Origin: Promethearchaeota archaeon
GTDB lineage: Archaea; Asgardarchaeota; Lokiarchaeia; Sigyniarchaeales; SOKP01
Reading direction: 5' to 3'
Assembly (NCBI GenBank): GCA_048938025.1
Contig: JBHLMP010000004.1
Location: 32,001-96,000, forward strand
Length of the DNA stretch: 64,000 nt
Part shown: positions 18,558 through 32,900 of the stretch, one piece after another
Layout of the letters: each line of letters starts with the position of its first letter
Position numbering within the stretch: the stretch's first letter is position 1
Notes under the pieces: model-generated
Databases searched by the model: none
The model's input: the letters and a program-made list of their open reading frames with translations, nothing else
Told to the model about the DNA's origin: nothing
Made by a program: the position numbers and the translations under genes

Positions 18558-21497
18558 ATGATTAAAGATCTCTCTGAGACCAAAGCTGATTTGACTTGTG
18601 AAGAATGTGGTGAACCAATAAAACATAATCAAATAGACAATAAACCTATATATTGTGAATTTTGTGGTGCTCAATATAGCTCTGTAGATTTGCGACATCC
18701 AGAAATATCACAACCGGAACAGGAAAGAATAAGATTTTCTTATACTACTGAAGAATTAAGCCAAGCAATTAGAAATCTTACCTATCAGAAAATTTATGAA
18801 TTGCTGAAAGCTAATTTTTCAATCATCAGCCGTTTAAAGGACCAAGAGGATCTTAAACAATCGCAAATATTAAAACTGGCTAAAAAATTACGAAGAGCAT
18901 TATTATTTCTTTCCCTTCCTTCCAACAATACTGAGTTGCTGACTAAGACCTCAAAGAAAAAGATTGAAAATTTTTTTGAGGACTTCCAAGCAAATTTAAA
19001 AAAAAAGAGAAAAAAGCAATCCAATTATGTGCCTTATTTGACGAAAAATATCAAATTCATTTATAGATTAATCAAGGGAGATTTTGAATTCTCAACTCTT
19101 GCTAAATATAATCAGAAAGCGGTGAATAAATTAAAAACCAAATTTGGGTTTAAAATCAATGCTAAAACTAAAAACGCATTCTCTTACTATTTATCAATAC
19201 TCCTGTGTAGAAAAATATATAAAATTATAACAACTCAGGGGCAGATCTTAGATTTAAAACATAGTAGAAATGAATTAACTAAGCAATATACATTAAACAC
19301 TGCTAAAGATATAACTGCATTAGTTTTAAACAATTACTTCAAGGGAAATTTCTCAAAAGCATATAGAAAATTAAAAATGGAGCTCGAGATCGATTGGGTT
19401 TACCGTGAAAGCTTTATTGACCATGTCCGCTCATTAATAAAACTGGTCTATAAATTAGCATATAACAACGGCTATACCTCTAGACTTGGAGGATTTCAAA
19501 AATTATTTGCTGAAGATTTAAAAGAAAGTAGGTTTTTTGAAGATGACACTATTTTTTCACCCTATTTTAAAGTGAATTTAACTCTGATTCTAAGCAGAAT
19601 TATTCACTGTATTCTTAATTCATCCCAAAATTTAACTCCACTACAATCTGACCCCAGAAAATTAAATCCTACTGATAACCTAAGATCGGCAAATGAGATT
19701 TTAGATGAACTTCTTGCAGATAAAAAAATTAAATCAGAATTTTTAAAGGAGTTTTATAACCTCTCTTTAGAAGAATTTCAAAAAGAATATGAGAATTTAC
19801 TAGCCAAATTAAAATCTGATATGCTCTATAAAGAAAACTTTCTATCATTCCTACAAAAACTTATAAATTCTGTTTACAAAATTACACACATCAAAAGTAA
19901 AAAATCGAATCATTCGAAAATAGAATTGGGAATTATCAAAGATCTGGCTAATTATAACTTTAATTGGGAGTCACTCAAAAAAGAAAAATCATGTTTCTAC
20001 TCAGAGGAAAAAGATAAAAGATATGATATATTTACAACAGAGATTCCAGAAAATAGTCTATTGTGGCGAGTAAGGGCTTATGTTATTGGATTCTTATTAT
20101 CAGATGGTTCAATAAGATATAATCCCTATGAAGTCGCAGCTTCTCAAAATTTAAAAGATAGAGACATACTAGATAATATTAAAAAAGCTTTAGGCGGAGA
20201 TATTCAAGGACCTGACAAAAAAAGTAAGTACTATTGGAGTGTATATAATAAAAGTTTAGTACTAACATTGAAGAAATATGGAATGGTCAAAGCACACTCA
20301 AAAGAACATATCGCAAAGAATCTAGTACCGCCTGATTTTATAACATTGATGATTAATGGAAAGTCAATATTGAGAGACTTTATTAGAGGATTTTATGATG
20401 GGGATGGTTGGATAACTGGTTCTTTTATAAGAGGTGATACTGGTTTCAAAATATTGGGTCCAGAAAAATTTTTAACAATAATACAAGAAATGATTTCAAT
20501 AGATGTTCCAGATATAAAATCATATATTACACCAGAAAGAAAACAATATTTTTTTATTAACAATAAGAAGTACCTTCTTTTTACTAAATCAAAAATATAT
20601 AAGAAAGGATACGGTTTTTATAAGCTCTCAACTGAAGAAAAAAAGAAAGGAGAAATAAAGATTTTGGATCATCCTTGGTTAAAGATTCTTCACTTCTCGG
20701 GAAACTTAAATGCTACTAAATTCTTTAACTGGTTATATGAGGATAATGACAAATTTGATCAATATGAGATTAATGGTATAAAAATTTGTGGTACAAGGAA
20801 GTTTAGAAAGGCTATTTCTATATTAGGAGATAAAAAGAAAAGAAAAGAAAGATTAGCTCCTGATTGGAAAGATACTATGACAGAAATTATACCCAAATTA
20901 AAAGCACGATTTTATAAAATAACAGAATTAAGAGATTTAACAAATGATTTACTTCTTGAAGAATTAAGGTCCTTAGGATTAGAACATCTATATGATGGAC
21001 AAAAAGCTAAAAATATGGATAAATTTCGAGAAAGATTAAAGTTTTTTGAATATCTAGATAATTTATTAGGACATTATAAAAAATCAAACATAAATTATTA
21101 TTTCAGTAAAATAAATCCTCCATCGATAATCCCTAAAGATTTTAAGAGAAGTATCTATTTGATTAAAAACGGAGATATTCGTAAAAACATTAAAAGCTTC
21201 ATAATTTATGTCCTTCTTTTGAAAGATAATCCCATGAAATTTGATGAAATTCTAAAAGAACTCAAGAAATCAAAAATTTTCGATAAGAACACTCTATATA
21301 TCAAGAATATTATAATAAATATCGTTGAATTAATATCATTTGAAATTATTTTTATCGAAGAACTTAAAAAACCAAGATTTATATTTAAGAATTTTAAAGA
21401 TCAAGATTTATATTTAAATATTTCAAGATTAAAAGTAATTTTAGGAATAGATTTAAAAGAGATTAAATTAAAACTAAAAAAACTATATTATAAATGA
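18558..21497 (+). CDS. Large free-standing double-motif LAGLIDADG protein with N-terminal zinc ribbon
   Basis: CEECG...CEFCG; AYVIGFLLSDG (~20076-20108) and DFIRGFYDGDG (~20376-20408). Confidence 0.8.
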   Translation: MIKDLSETKADLTCEECGEPIKHNQIDNKPIYCEFCGAQYSSVDLRHPEISQPEQERIRFSYTTEELSQAIRNLTYQKIYELLKANFSIISRLKDQEDLKQSQILKLAKKLRRALLFLSLPSNNTELLTKTSKKKIENFFEDFQANLKKKRKKQSNYVPYLTKNIKFIYRLIKGDFEFSTLAKYNQKAVNKLKTKFGFKINAKTKNAFSYYLSILLCRKIYKIITTQGQILDLKHSRNELTKQYTLNTAKDITALVLNNYFKGNFSKAYRKLKMELEIDWVYRESFIDHVRSLIKLVYKLAYNNGYTSRLGGFQKLFAEDLKESRFFEDDTIFSPYFKVNLTLILSRIIHCILNSSQNLTPLQSDPRKLNPTDNLRSANEILDELLADKKIKSEFLKEFYNLSLEEFQKEYENLLAKLKSDMLYKENFLSFLQKLINSVYKITHIKSKKSNHSKIELGIIKDLANYNFNWESLKKEKSCFYSEEKDKRYDIFTTEIPENSLLWRVRAYVIGFLLSDGSIRYNPYEVAASQNLKDRDILDNIKKALGGDIQGPDKKSKYYWSVYNKSLVLTLKKYGMVKAHSKEHIAKNLVPPDFITLMINGKSILRDFIRGFYDGDGWITGSFIRGDTGFKILGPEKFLTIIQEMISIDVPDIKSYITPERKQYFFINNKKYLLFTKSKIYKKGYGFYKLSTEEKKKGEIKILDHPWLKILHFSGNLNATKFFNWLYEDNDKFDQYEINGIKICGTRKFRKAISILGDKKKRKERLAPDWKDTMTEIIPKLKARFYKITELRDLTNDLLLEELRSLGLEHLYDGQKAKNMDKFRERLKFFEYLDNLLGHYKKSNINYYFSKINPPSIIPKDFKRSIYLIKNGDIRKNIKSFIIYVLLLKDNPMKFDEILKELKKSKIFDKNTLYIKNIIINIVELISFEIIFIEELKKPRFIFKNFKDQDLYLNISRLKVILGIDLKEIKLKLKKLYYK

Positions 21498-21535
21498 TAA
21501 TTTGAAAAAAAAAAGTGTAAAAAATTAATTAAATA

Positions 21536-23548
21536 TTAACCAATTTCAATATCCATCTTTTTACGTTCTTCAAGTAGCTTTTCAACAACAGAAGGATCTG
21601 CTAACGTTGTAACGTTTCCGATTTCTGTTCCAGAAGCTATAGCTTTTAAGATTCTCCGCATTATCTTGCCACTTCGCGTCTTAGGTAAATCATCGGCAAA
21701 TTGAATCACATCTGGCTGAAATACAGGACCGATCTCCTGTCTTACATGCATTCTTATCTCTTTCGATAACTTAGCTGATTTTTCGACTCCTTGGATTAAG
21801 GTTATAAATGCCCAAATTGCTTGTCCTTTGATTTTATGCGGAAATGGAGCTACAGCTGCTTCAGCAACCTTTGGATGGCTTACAAGAGCAGATTCTACTT
21901 CCATAGTTCCAATTCGATGACCTGAGACTTTAATGACATCATCTAATCGCCCAAGAATCCAATAATAACCATCTTCATCTCGTCGTGCTCCATCACCAGT
22001 ATAATAGTATCCTGGATACTTTTCAAGATATGTTGATTTAAATCTCTCTGTATCTCCCCAAACGTCTCTTAACATTCCTGGCCAAGGTTGTGCCATGGCA
22101 AAATACCCACCTTCATTTGGTTCTGTAATTTCGTCCCCTTCTAAATCGAAAATGACTGGTTTAATCCCTAAAAAGGGAAAACAACATGATCCTGGTTTTG
22201 TGGGTGTTGCTGTAGCAATTGGTGTCATTATAAAACCCCCTGTCTCTGTTAACCAATGTACGCGTTATGCGTCCATTTTTTGCCAGTAAGTATCAACTAT
22301 TGGGGCTTTACCTTTTCCAACGACTTTATGGTACCAGGTCCAAGCTTCGGGATTTATTGGCTCTCCAACAGTTCCTAATACTTTTAATGAACTTAAATCA
22401 TGCTTCTTAACTGGTTCATCACCATATCTCATCAAGGCGCGAATTGCTGTGGGAGCTGTATAGAAATGAGTTACTTTATTATGTTCTACAATATCCCAGA
22501 ATCTATCTACATCAGGATATGTTGGAACTCCCTCAAACATTAATGTAGTTGCACCATTAGCTAAAGGTCCATATACAATATAGGAGTGACCGGTAATCCA
22601 GCCGATATCTGCAGTACAGTACCAAATATCACTTTCATGGTAATTAAATACGATTTTATGTGTAAGCGACGTATATAATATATAACCTGCTGTTGTATGT
22701 TTAACACCTTTTGGTTTTCCAGTTGTTCCACTTGTATATAATATAAATAAAGTATCCTCAGAATCCATTGCTTCAGGTTCGCATTCATCGCTCATCCCTT
22801 CAATAAAATCATGATACCAAATGTCTTTATTAGTGTGGGGAACTTCTCTTCCGGAACGTTTTACTACTATGACATGCTCTATTGTTGGAACATCATCAAT
22901 AATTTGAACAACATCTGATATTTTTGGATAAAATTTCCCTGCTCTTAATGTTTCATCGCTTGTGAATAAGAGTCGTGAGTCAGAATCATCGATTCGATCC
23001 TTTACAGCTTCTTTTGAGAAACCACCAAAAACTATAGAATGAATAACTCCAAGGCGAGCACAAGCAAGCATTATTATTGCTAATTCAGGAACCATAGGTA
23101 ACCAAATGGTTACACGATCTCCCTTTTTCAAACCAAGTTTTTTCATACCATTGGCAACTTTATTGACTTCTTTTAATAATTCAGTGTAAGTATAAGTTTT
23201 AACATGTCCAGGTTCATCAGCTTCCCAAATAAGAGCCACTGTATCGCCTTTTCCAGCTTTTATGTGCCTATCTAAACTGTTATAAGCAACATTTAGTTTT
23301 CCTCCGACAAACCATTTACCAGGAAACAATTCTGTTTTTTCCCATACTTTTTTATAAGGCTCGAACCAGTCCAGAGATTTAGCTTGTTCATCCCAGAAAC
23401 CTTCCATATCTTCGATTGATTGTTTGTAAAGTTTTTTATATTCTTCTAAAGATATACCTGTTTTAGCAAATTTCTTGTTTAACTTAACAGGATCGAAAAT
23501 ACGTGTTTCAGTAAGAATACTTTCCATCTTTTTGTCTTTTTCAGACAT
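21536..23548 (-). CDS. acs: Acetyl-CoA synthetase (AMP-forming), interrupted by a 30-nt in-frame insertion; 660 aa if excised
   Basis: YTSGTTGKPKG, TADIGWITGHSY, VGEPINPEAW, TGDGA, LPKTRSGKIMRR; ORFs 22265-23548 and 21536-22228 are in the same frame. Confidence 0.95.
22249..22278 (-). other. Candidate bulge-helix-bulge mRNA intron (30 nt)
   Basis: mRNA ...UACUGGCAAA|AAAUGGACGCAUAACGCGUACAUUGGUUAA|CAGAGACA...; removal restores DTYWQTETGG; internal stem AAUGGACGC/GCGUACAUU. Confidence 0.65.
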
Positions 23549-23824
23549 ACCATTTCACTTCTTTGAATTTTATTATATTTGAATTATTTTATGTTATAAT
23601 TTTTGTTAATACATTAAAAATTTTAAAGATTCATATTCAGTCTCATCGTATTTAAAATTATCATTTTAATAAGACGAGAATAAGTCAAAAAATAGATATA
23701 TTAAATCATTTTTAAACATTTTATTTATAATTTCAAAAAAATTATATGGATAAAAGAGTATATAATAAAACTATTCAATATAATTTTAATAAAATAAAAT
23801 CTATTTTTAGCGTGAGTATTAAAA

Positions 23825-29927: not shown

Positions 29928-32900
29928 CTAAGATTCAGTTTTAAGTGATATTAATTCTTTCTCTTCTTCAAATAGTGGTAAAATCTCTAGCATCTCATTA
30001 ATTTTTGGCAAAAATCTTTCCATTTTATATAATTTAACATCAAGTAAAAACAAGATTAACAAGATATAAAAAGTATCTTCAACTAACTTTCTATTTATTC
30101 CTAAACTATTTAAGAAATTATTCACGTTATCTCTAATGAGTTGTATAGATTCTCCTGCTTTTAATAAAGATAAACCATGGAGAAGTATTAATAGCGAACT
30201 AGTGTTATAATCTTGTCTTTTAGAAATTGTAATAGCTAAATCAAAATATGTTTTACCCGCTTTTTTGAATTCTTTTATTTCTAATAAACTTAATACGTCA
30301 AGATAATATCGTTTTCTCATAGCTTTTCGTTTAATATAAAAATCACTTTTTTCTCTTCGGATATCTACTGTTTTAGATTTTATTTTGGCAAATCTTTGAT
30401 CTATTTCTATTTTAAATTTTTCTTCTACTTGTTCAATAGATTTTTCACGTATAACTTCTTTTTTGTAATCCTTACCTAAATAATCATAAAGATATTCCAA
30501 TTCCTCTTCGAATAGTGGTAAATTCTCTATATAGGAGATTGCCTCTTTAAGTTTAGGTTCATCCTTAAGTTTCTCTAATTCTATTATGTATTCTATTAAT
30601 TTTATTGGAAAGCTTTCAGAAATAAGTTTCCATAAATTAGATAACTCTTTTTTAGTTTCATTTAATAATTTAGTAATTTCTTGAGTTTTATTTTGTTTCA
30701 TCAGTATTAGACTAGCTAGAACTAAAGATACTCCAGCTAAATTATACTTTTTACGTTTATTAAATGTGACAATGTTATTTCTATAAATTTCTAAGGCTTT
30801 ATCGATTTCTTGATTCTTTATAAAATTTAAAGCTTCTTCAAAATATACTCTTTTTAATCCTTTCCTCTCTCTAAATTCTTTTTCTCTGTCCATTAGGGCT
30901 CCTTGTGCTTTACTTTTAATAATTGATAATCTTTCCTTTAATATTTCTGCCTTCTTTTTTTCTTCTGCTTTTTTAGATTCAAAACCACTTTTTTCTGCTT
31001 CAAGGTTAGCAATTCTTTTATGAATTTCCGCTTTATATATCTTATCTTCAATTTTATCATTATATATATTAGCTTGATGTAGATCATCTAAAACAATATA
31101 AATTTCAGCAATCTTTTTATATACGTCATCCAAATTAATTTTTAATCGCTCTTCCTTTTCTAAATAAGCCGATGCAATATTCCGTATTTTTTTATCTAAT
31201 TCTATTGCTTGATTAATCCCAGATAAGTTTTCTTCACGCTCTACAACGTTCAAAGCTTCTTTTTTAATAATTTTTATAAAAAGAAGGCTTATTTGTTTTG
31301 ATTCATCATAAAGCATTTGATTTCTGAAAATTCTATTTGAATTCTCAAAAATACTTTCATTTCTTTTATAAGTCTCTTGTTTCTTAATTTCTTTCAATTT
31401 TAGGATATATAATGGATATACTCCTGTTAAATACTTTTTTTTCATATCTTCCGTAAGATGTTCATATAAGACAAAAAAATCTTCAAAAATTTTTGCACGT
31501 AATAATATATCTAGAGATTTTGTTAAGATTTGATCACCAATATCTTCTTTACCAATCATTTTAAGATAATTAGCTTGATTTTTAAGAATATTTGCCGCAT
31601 TTAAATGTTCATTTAGCTCTATTAATTTATTAGCTTCTTTGATTTTCTGAGAATTCATGTCCACAATAATATTTAATTCAGCTTCTATAAATTCACCTAG
31701 TAAATCTACTCCTTTTTTAAGATTTTCCTCTATTTCCTTTTTCTTTGATACTTTATACTCATCTTCTGCTATTGAACTTAATTTTGTTAAGTTTTTCTTT
31801 AATTTTAAAGAACTTAATTTACTAATTAAAATTGTAGAAATACCAAAATTATATTCTTTAAGAAATAAGGTTATCAATTTTTCCAATATTGAATCTAGAT
31901 TTTTCTTTTCTACATTATATGATTCATATAAGTTTTCAATTTCATCATAAGTTTGTTTTGCAGCATAAATCTCATTTTGATTAACCTGTTGTTTTAAGAG
32001 TCTTATTAATATATCACTTAATTTCTCTGTTAATTTTTCTATTTCTTCAGATAATCCCTCGCGTTGGTATTTATCTATAGCTCGATATAACTGTTCTCTT
32101 GCCGATTCAAAATCATTTACATTTACTAAGAAATCTCCTTCATCTCTAATTTTTTTTGAGATCTCCTTCAGGATAGTTAACATTTCTTTATGGGATAAAC
32201 TTTCAAGAATTCTAAATGCATTTTCAACCCTACAAGCGGAAATCCAAGAATTAATAGATAATCTAAAAGCCTCATGAATTATTTTATCATCTTGTAATTC
32301 AATGCTGGACCATTGTGCCGCTTTTTCATATATTTTCGCTGCTTCTTCATATTTTCCCTTATTAAATAACCGATTACCATCAGTAATCATTGCTTCAGCA
32401 TATAGCTTTTTATAATTTATTGATTTCCTTCTGTCAACTTTTTCTAAGATTTTACTTGCTTCTAAATATAAGTTGAGTTTTGAATAAAGATAAGCTGCTT
32501 GCTCACTAAGGATAAAATAATCTTCTTTATTATAAATATCAGCGATAAGAGCTGCTTTTTTTACAGCTTGAGCAGCATAATAATAATTTTTGTTATCATA
32601 ATAAATATTTGCCATTTGGATAAATATTGGAAATCTCATCCATGCATTTTCAATATTTAATGGAGAATCACCATTAATCATAGCTAAACATAGAGCTTGA
32701 AGTGCTTGATGAAAATTTTTAGGTTTTAAATTTACGAAAGCTTCTAAACTGAGATAATTGACCCAAATTGTTTCCAATAACTCATTTACAGACATTGGGA
32801 GAATGCCATTTTGATCATAAAAAATTATAACTGTTGGTATATCTCTTTTAACTGAAAAAATTTCGGGAAGAAGCATTTTAAATAATTCAAATTCTCCTAT

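Follow-up and report, generated by a model that had tools for sequence, protein, structure and literature searches.

Why is the gene for acetyl-CoA synthetase (acs) in a Promethearchaeota archaeon interrupted by 30 extra bases that include a stop codon? This gene lies on the minus strand at 21536-23548 of the window, by which we mean the whole stretch of 64,000 nucleotides that was analyzed (positions 32,001 to 96,000 of contig JBHLMP010000004.1 from assembly GCA_048938025.1). The window is part of a metagenome-assembled genome (96.7% complete, 5.14% estimated contamination, 3.52 Mb, 29% G+C). The extra bases, at 22249-22278, split acs between DTYWQ and TETGG, and if the gene is translated straight through, then it reads DTYWQ-KMDA*RVHWL-TETGG. 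This amounts to 10 added codons, including a TAA at 22265-22267. We propose that the 30 bases are very probably a bulge-helix-bulge (BHB) intron that is spliced from the pre-mRNA by the endonuclease EndA and the ligase RtcB.

A relaxed BHB intron had been proposed at this place in an earlier reading of the window that was made from the DNA letters (the "sequence-only reading"). We reproduced its coordinates and layout exactly, including KMDA*RVHWL and the TAA, and the inner stem proved to be as it had been described, with 9 base pairs (bp), a single G.A mismatch, and a loop of 5 nt. As explained below, homologous inserts in other genomes, covariation, selection on the exons, sibling introns, and the enzymes encoded by the host all support this proposal.

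The insert and its predicted structure

Three different 30-nt deletions give identical joined DNA, and the register that corresponds to a BHB motif is 22249-22278. Removing these bases at the predicted cuts restores DTYWQTETGG. The joined RNA would read ...UGG CAA ACA GAG... and the product would be an acetyl-CoA synthetase of 661 residues, or about 74 kDa. The predicted spliced junction is ...UACUGGCAAACAGAGACA..., with the exons joined between ...UACUGGCAA and ACAGAGACA... The features, all on the minus strand, are:

22279-23548, minus strand: exon 1, from the start codon to the 5' cut (from the translation and the BHB cut rule); it carries ACAS_N and positions 6-321 of the 384 in the AMP-binding profile, and its last codons spell ...DTYWQ, followed by the A that opens the Thr codon
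22249-22278, minus strand: predicted intron of 30 nt, in the register given by the BHB (a single bulge nt, the 23-nt hairpin, the 4-nt H' strand, and 2 further bulge nt)
21536-22248, minus strand: exon 2, which opens with the final two bases of the Thr codon (TETGG...) and closes with the stop codon (21536-21538); contains AMP-binding_C
22285-22289, minus strand: outer helix h, 5' strand (UUACU), exonic; its partner is 22243-22247
22243-22247, minus strand: outer helix h, 3' strand (AGAGA), exonic
22281-22284, minus strand: central helix H, 5' strand (GGCA), exonic (Trp-Gln codons)
22251-22254, minus strand: central helix H, 3' strand (GGUU), intronic
22278-22280, minus strand: 5' bulge (AAA), with the predicted cut after its second base, between 22279 and 22278
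22248-22250, minus strand: 3' bulge (AAC), with the predicted cut after its second base, between 22249 and 22248
22255-22277, minus strand: inner hairpin h', with a stem of 22269-22277 paired to 22255-22263 and a loop at 22264-22268
22265-22267, minus strand: in-frame TAA in the region of the hairpin loop, which ends the unspliced reading frame

The inner stem (AAUGGACGC with GCGUACAUU) has 9 bp, with the one mismatch already mentioned, and its 5-nt loop is AUAAC. In the outer helix (UUACU with AGAGA), four of five positions are paired and the middle one is A.A. The motif as a whole fits the relaxed form of BHB and not the strict form.

If this structure is correct, then splicing might proceed as follows. 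The exonic GGCA would pair with the intronic GGUU to form the central helix, which would be flanked by the 3-nt bulges AAA and AAC, by the 9-bp intronic hairpin, and by the short exon-exon helix. A two-subunit EndA would cut each bulge after its second base. RtcB would then ligate the exons, giving back DTYWQTETGG and the full-length enzyme, and the intron would leave as a 30-nt piece, probably a circular one. The TAA would matter only for unspliced RNA. We infer the cleavage, the ligation, and the exact positions of the cuts.

We also considered whether the insert belongs to some other class of element. Group I and group II ribozymes are far larger than 30 nt. Rfam has no match at E ≤ 1 in 21400-23700, be it to a group I or group II intron or to another described RNA family. 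The 23-nt hairpin occurs just once in the 3.52-Mb genome, even if up to 3 mismatches are allowed, whereas a miniature repeat or the footprint of a transposon would be expected in repeated copies.

Is the insert present in the DNA?

Could the insert be an error of assembly or sequencing? The genome is metagenome-assembled, with some estimated contamination, and palindromes are prone to mis-assembly. However, the insert is found unchanged in an independently assembled contig from a public run; the sequence-only reading had named raw DNA reads as a check. A Logan contig from sequencing run X1 (662 nt, depth 43.5) covers 22080-22741 with no differences and no gaps, and no deletion variant of the insert is listed for this run. 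X1 may be the source sample of the window's assembly, hence this is a check on the assembler and not on the sample. Six other assemblies, from other records, hold an insert at the same site in acs, and this is stronger support for a real insert than the X1 contig is. We consider an artefact to be extremely improbable.

Of the 20 sequencing runs that were listed, 2 are of RNA (with shares of 0.05-0.06), and X1-X3, from study P1, are of sediment samples in which the organism occurs. We compared runs X1, X4, X5, and X19. In run X4, there is a loose end at 22281, which reads like an insert-free relative.

The same site in related genomes

We first compared acs across 40 relatives and found 29 orthologous loci (20 from the genus and 9 from the order). 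D[TS]YWQTETG is uninterrupted in all 29. The closest relative in this comparison (G012, 93% protein identity) has identical flanking DNA without the 30 bases. We also compared the C-terminal half of acs to all 54 genomes from the genus, which gave 45 rows. In 41 of these, the open reading frame is 630-671 amino acids (aa) long; for the window's genome, it is 242 aa; and three rows end at the edges of contigs. So, 41 of the 42 rows that could be assessed are uninterrupted. By themselves, these two comparisons would fit a recent disabling insertion, with acs being a young pseudogene whose halves merely look intact. The stop codon within the insert and the insert's location in an essential motif would fit this as well.

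Two of the short frames in the genus, in G043 (end of contig C39, L195) and G014 (end of contig C199, L196), might seem to be interrupted by introns. This is ruled out, as both are contig ends: acs is cut off 14-16 residues past the junction at this site (site E below). The contig of another locus, L113, ends at about the same place (nucleotide 1364 of the reference gene).

The picture from a broader sample is different. A scan of species-representative genomes gave 46 archaeal loci, which are titled Promethearchaeota or Promethearchaeia, with a few that have other Asgard labels, and the analysis assigned the window to the Asgard archaea through its kinship with these. We aligned a total of 68 acs loci (L002-L022, L072-L117, and L135; some genomes were fetched twice) to the insert-free gene from G012. 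In seven of the 68, 30 nt are inserted at this site; these seven are the window, L100, L108, L109, L113, L115, and L116. These inserts are all exactly 30 nt long, yet only 83% of their columns are identical. Between L113 and the window, one base of the loop differs, which changes TAA to TAG, while the remaining inserts have many differences. Six of the seven inserts have an in-frame stop codon, at differing places, and the insert in L116 has none. (In L109, around residue 120 of acs, there is also an extra in-frame stop codon beside a small gap in the projection onto the reference. This could be a slip of the alignment, a frameshift, or a further small insert.)

The sequence-only reading had suggested looking in relatives for inserts at the same site with covarying stems, and the seven inserts have them. 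When the BHB structure is laid over the seven putative introns, 86.6% of cells pair, versus 31-47% if the partner strand is slid by 1-3 columns. Four pairs of the inner stem show compensatory changes on both sides (9 cells), and in the outer helix, 89% of cells pair across 4 pairs. The covariation score is 0.336, versus 0.222 ± 0.031 for shuffled alignments, and none of 500 shuffles reached it. Kinship alone might beat the shuffles without any structure; the slid controls, which preserve the kinship, are the safer comparison.

Selection on both exons

Among the seven intron-bearing acs genes, the ratio of nonsynonymous to synonymous changes (dN/dS) in pairwise comparisons is 0.02-0.08 for the part upstream of the site; for the downstream part, it reaches 0.12 at most. 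The synonymous divergence (dS) in these comparisons is mostly above 1 or saturated. The window and L113 share the intron; between them, the upstream part has a dS of 0.48 and a dN/dS of 0.05, and for the downstream part these values are 0.25 and 0.12. Because dN/dS is low, including in the comparison with L113, each half of acs has been maintained as coding sequence in the presence of the insert. A conserved, covarying RNA structure interrupts a coding sequence that is otherwise under selection.

Relaxed selection on both halves is what the sequence-only reading would have expected of a recent pseudogene, and we found strong purifying selection on both exons instead. The window's genome also lacks a second acs orthologue (the next-best match is a paralogue with 32% identity), even though the genome is nearly complete. 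A young pseudogene is also hard to reconcile with diverged inserts of the same length, with compensatory changes, at the same site in six other assemblies, or with similar inserts in two other genes that are under purifying selection in many species (see below). We conclude that acs is very unlikely to be a pseudogene.

More short inserts within acs

The seven acs loci hold 18 short inserts (30, 32, 33, or 60 nt) at six sites. The positions below are those of the reference gene from G012:

Site A, between CTAD and IGW, nucleotide 940: 32 nt in L113, L115, and L116
Site B, nucleotides 1036-1042: 33 nt in L113 and 60 nt in L115
Site C, nucleotide 1084: 30 nt in L113
Site D, between GEPI and NPEAW, nucleotide 1193: 30 nt in L108, L113, L115, and L116
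Site E, the site of the window's insert, nucleotide 1268: 30 nt in the seven loci named above
Site F, between YPGYY and YTGD, nucleotide 1513: 32 nt in L116

The locus with the most inserts is L113, with five, followed by L115 and L116 with four apiece. The stretches with multiple inserts are at 3440-3935 of L113 and 3440-3930 of L115.

To describe these inserts in a uniform way, we defined a BHB structure as a central helix with at least 3 of 4 positions paired and a hairpin that closes right beside the bulges and whose stem stacks 6 or more pairs, with no more than 1 mismatch. The cut was placed after the second base of each bulge, and registers within ±4 nt were tried. Of the 18 inserts, 15 have such a structure, each at exactly one register, and every one of these registers restores the conserved peptide. 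By chance, such structures arise at 1,998 of 357,324 position-length pairs in insert-free acs genes (0.56%) and in 113 of 3,600 shuffled inserts (3.1%). For site F of L116, we checked by hand that the aligner's register gives a TAA while the BHB register gives YPGYYYTGD. The insert at site A of L113 is a textbook BHB: the central helix is CGGC/GCUG (4 of 4 paired), the bulges are AGA and AAA, the stem has 10 bp, and the outer helix is paired at 5 of 5 positions.

These inserts, and those in the two genes described next, share a common build. The leading base of the bulge is usually A; this is followed by a stem of 9-10 bp with a 5-nt loop that often ends in C, then by a 4-nt strand that is complementary to the upstream exon; and the 3' end is usually AA. 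This hints at a common origin or at a common requirement of the enzyme.

Inserts in two other genes

We found similar inserts in two other genes. The first encodes an AMP-binding paralogue of acs (Pfam ACAS_N and AMP-binding), which we take to be acetoacetyl-CoA-synthetase-like because of its SWMMWNW motif. A 30-nt insert with a TAA lies within this motif, between SWMM and WNW. There are 8 interrupted copies (L034, L035, L045, L054, L056, L059, L061, and L068) in 7 of the 54 genomes from the genus, while the copy in the window's genome is uninterrupted. The putative intron has the same 1+23+6 layout as the one in acs. Its central helix is UGGA/GCCA, or UGGA/UCCA, which is fully paired, in G053. 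Two stem pairs change on both sides, and the covariation is modest (18 of 500 shuffles reached it). In pairwise comparisons, both halves have a dN/dS of 0.02-0.13, and most of the dS values exceed 0.8.

The second gene encodes a JAB/MPN protein. In the window's genome, it lies outside of the window, and a 31-nt insert that shifts the frame is found at contig C9:20655-20685 (1156-1186 of locus L152, minus strand), between HSHPGF and KVMMSHID. The match to Pfam JAB is cut at profile position 97 of 117. Among the 51 orthologues from the genus, 38 have open reading frames of 317-357 aa, 12 stop at the same point (213-214 aa), and one differs; the interrupted set is the window's genome and 11 congeners. 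The insert is 31, 32, 29, 30, 30, and 31 nt long in six of the interrupted sequences. The central helix is paired at 4 of 4 positions in all six, and in the window's genome it is the full GGCU/AGCU. The exon's strand (within a Gly or Asp codon) and the intron's strand covary: the combinations are GGCU/AGCU, GGUU/AACU, GACU/AGUU, and GGCU/AGUU. This is two-sided evidence for the central helix, which the acs site cannot provide. The sequence-only reading had also suggested a scan of the genome for other genes that are split with this geometry, and the JAB/MPN gene, which fits the same cut rule, is one. Across acs, the paralogue, and the JAB/MPN gene, a single EndA cut rule restores the frame at eight sites.

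If EndA does not remove these inserts, then something else must deal with them. The ribosome might bypass the insert, or read through the stop codon and add 10 residues, or the insert might be excised at the RNA level in some other way. In the phage T4 gene 60 bypass, the ribosome skips a short non-coding gap with a hairpin and an early stop codon, between matched take-off and landing codons. The insert in acs resembles known bypass elements in that its length is a multiple of three and it has a hairpin and an early stop, and the paralogue's insert lies between two ATG codons, which are possible take-off and landing sites. But in acs the codons do not match (CAA precedes the insert and UUA is its last codon), and the sibling inserts shift the frame (32 nt in acs; 29, 31, and 32 nt in the JAB/MPN gene). 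Because the 32-nt inserts in acs shift the frame, explanations at the level of decoding, or translation through these inserts, are excluded for them. Variation in the length of the insert at a single site also fits excision of RNA and not decoding. As for read-through, the 10 residues would be placed within DTYWQTETGG. Finally, the cut rule of EndA identifies a frame-restoring register in 15 of 18 inserts. The folding energies that are discussed below favor this alternative, and overall we consider it unlikely.

Another idea is that acs is a split gene whose two polypeptides are made separately and then assemble. Both halves have long open frames (427 and 230 aa), and the paralogue's insert ends in ATG. 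However, the first in-frame ATG in the C-terminal half of acs is after TETGGFI, so the motif would be lost. Both Pfam matches are cut in mid-profile, AMP-binding at 321 of 384 and JAB at the position given above. Also, a split gene would not explain why the hairpin covaries or why the length is fixed at 30 nt. We view a split gene as highly improbable.

The splicing machinery

The sequence-only reading had attributed the splicing to EndA and RtcB, and the host encodes both. The window's genome has two EndA paralogues (201 and 200 aa, at the C66 and C33 loci), each with both tRNA_int_endo domains (PF01974 and PF02778), and one copy of RtcB. According to one report, Asgard archaea have (alpha-beta)2 EndA with an L1 insert, and only such enzymes cut relaxed motifs (PMC5829648). 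On the basis of that report, the two paralogues may form an (alpha-beta)2 enzyme with an L1 loop. The cut rule that we used, between the second and third bases of the bulge, is as given in PMC2738675.

ARAGORN identified 32 tRNA genes in the window's genome, of which 18 have introns, several of them at odd positions. The low total suggests that further tRNA genes are hidden by multiple introns. The abstract of a 2026 preprint describes the tRNA genes of Asgard archaea as heavily interrupted, with repeated gains at BHB-competent sites (bioRxiv 10.64898/2026.10.13.758758).

Evidence against a BHB intron in acs

A number of results weigh against this proposal. In the window, GGCA/GGUU comprises two G.U pairs, one C-G pair, and an A.G mismatch, which is weak. 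Across the seven acs loci, the exon's strand at site E is always GGCA and the intron's strand varies (GGUU, GGCU, UGCU, AGCU, or UGUC), so the changes in this helix are one-sided only. Three of four positions pair in five of the sequences, and all four pair in L108 and L116. Thus, the caution of the sequence-only reading that the helix is weak and that only a relaxed BHB fits is correct for the window, but it does not extend to L108 and L116, where the helix has the full 4 bp.

The predicted folding energies also do not favor the BHB form. A 51-nt region around the insert does fold stably, at -11.6 kcal/mol, which none of 200 shuffled sequences equals (their mean is -5.13, with a standard deviation of 1.75; z = -3.70). 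If 81 nt are folded instead, then the signal becomes weak, with z = -1.44 and with 19 of 200 shuffles doing at least as well. But the unconstrained minimum-energy fold is not the BHB: instead, CUG/CAG and AA/UU pairs surround two 2x2 internal loops. If the BHB is imposed, then the energy is -3.0 instead of -11.6 kcal/mol, or about 8.6 worse by the nearest-neighbor model. For all seven of the homologous acs introns, the energy model favors folds other than the BHB, by 4.8-8.6 kcal/mol. Similarly, given the seven introns, RNAalifold predicts the inner stem together with an outer helix of CUG/CAG and misses the central helix. The central helix at the acs site is thus predicted from geometry and one-sided changes in the sequences, and not from thermodynamics.

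The inserts at sites A and B of L115 and at site E of L116 lack a regular stem, which accounts for the three of 18 that did not qualify above. Their central helices still have at least 3 of 4 positions paired, and their inner stems are irregular. We also built a covariance model from the 8 introns of the paralogue. With filters off, it has 12 matches in the window at E ≤ 10, and it missed the insert in acs. So the likeness of the two introns is architectural and is not in their sequences. Nor could the introns of acs and the paralogue be aligned to each other by MAFFT. It did place the 5' exon-intron boundary of acs (...CUGGCAAAAAAUGGA, in 22271-22290 of the window) against the 3' intron-exon boundary of the paralogue (...CAGCCAAAAUGUGGA), and this match of CUGGCAAAAAAUGGA to CAGCCAAAAUGUGGA is probably due to chance. 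As for the transcript, RNA run X19 covers only 22689-22938, which is off the junction in acs.

Finally, the introns are patchily distributed. Using maximum likelihood, we built a tree from 50 distinct acs sequences of nearly full length, from which the truncated L113 was dropped and in which identical projections were merged. The six intron-bearing sequences are scattered across the tree, each beside an insert-free sister. Six changes are needed to explain the pattern, and in all of 500 trials with shuffled labels, no more than this were needed. This tree of the whole gene does not tell gain from loss.

The tree may be confounded by recombination. We computed identities in 120-nt windows along acs and found a mosaic across nucleotides 840-1440 of the reference (about 22100-22700 of the window). 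G012 and L113 are 93-99% identical over the first 840 nt and 75-82% identical from 960 to the end of the L113 contig at about nucleotide 1364. The stretch with low identity holds four of the five introns of L113 (sites B-E), and site A, at nucleotide 940, is just upstream. The window's acs tracks G012 up to about nucleotide 1080 and is nearer to L113 after nucleotide 1320 (44 nt compared). From these identities, it is plausible that recombination between intron-bearing and intron-free alleles of acs lies behind the patchy pattern.

Scans for other interrupted genes

We scanned the window's genome for pairs of open stretches, each of at least 80 codons, that are parted by a single in-frame stop codon. 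This gave 197 pairs, nearly all of which are neighboring genes. Acs stood out, as did five HdrA-like pairs with TGA. The HdrA-like frames are on contigs C15, C26, C29, C85, and C87 of the same genome, outside of the window, and each is broken by a single TGA after ...FPTDDC[SAG]I, which may encode selenocysteine.

A loose BHB descriptor had 48,684 matches in the window's genome and was uninformative. A stricter descriptor had 107,105 raw matches, of which 167 join open frames. By eye, acs and JAB/MPN were the only convincing cases among the 167, so the window's genome has at least two putative mRNA introns. We also scanned metagenomes with a degenerate pattern for site E and found 46 matching stretches. 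None of the 46 are in the context of acs (records near the window's genome were possibly left out), and they are chance matches.

We also note a frame of 979 aa beside acs, at 18558-21497 of the window (plus strand). It contains stretches (LLSDGSI... and FYDGDGW...) that we take to resemble the motifs of LAGLIDADG homing endonucleases.

Comparison to known systems

In the two papers that we consulted, splicing of archaeal mRNA at BHB motifs is documented only for cbf5 of Crenarchaeota (PMC2738675; PMC5829648). In the first of them, the cbf5 intron is reported from the Desulfurococcales and Sulfolobales; the motif is BHB-like and often relaxed; EndA is hetero-oligomeric; the presence of the intron varies among relatives; and splicing was shown by cDNA (PMC2738675). 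Our proposal for acs adds no new mechanism: its pre-mRNA would be spliced at a BHB motif, just as that of cbf5 is. By these accounts of cbf5, both cases have a BHB-like motif (a predicted one for acs) within a protein-coding transcript, the same cut rule (again as predicted for acs), and a patchy presence. Unlike cbf5, the host genes here are acs, the acs-like paralogue, and JAB/MPN; the lineage is Promethearchaeota (Asgard); the introns have a uniform size of about 30 nt, with a stem of 9-10 bp and a 5-nt loop; there are up to five per gene; and we infer the splicing, whereas in cbf5 it was shown by cDNA.

The non-canonical tRNA introns of Asgard archaea are another point of comparison. They have the same predicted enzymes and motif as the acs intron, but the host of the acs intron is an mRNA, so the exonic part of the motif is under coding constraint as well. 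In a term search of the preprint's text, "mRNA" does not occur (bioRxiv 10.64898/2026.10.13.758758). More generally, our full-text searches, which most subscription journals and supplements lay outside of, found no description of BHB introns in Asgard protein-coding genes.

Outside of the archaea, HAC1/XBP1 has a short mRNA intron that a protein endonuclease removes at stem-loops, after which a tRNA ligase seals the mRNA. RtcB can reportedly perform this step for HAC1. That system differs from the acs intron in that the endonuclease is Ire1 instead of EndA, the splicing is regulatory and is induced by stress, and there is no BHB motif. The sequence-only reading had raised the idea that the acs intron might be a regulatory switch, and we found nothing to support this. 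The bypass in T4 gene 60, which acts on the ribosome, differs in the ways discussed above: acs has no matched codons and its sibling inserts shift the frame.

Implications

What is new here is the host genes (central metabolism and a protease), the Asgard lineage, the presence of several introns within one protein-coding gene, the uniform mini size, and the variable presence. Gene callers will split or truncate interrupted genes like these, so counts of genes and calls of pseudogenes in Asgard archaea may be biased.

A broader and much more tentative idea is that these Promethearchaeota have a proliferating family of uniform mini-introns of about 30 nt in their protein-coding genes, with up to 5 per acs, which come and go and which recombination carries from one allele to another. 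We regard this as possible but less likely than not. If it is true, then the closest prokaryotic relatives of eukaryotes would have mRNAs with multiple introns that would have to be spliced by the tRNA machinery, before or during translation. This would raise the questions of how translation of the unspliced mRNA is avoided if transcription and translation are coupled, how introns arrive at new sites, and whether mRNAs were spliced by tRNA enzymes in the archaeal ancestors of eukaryotes.

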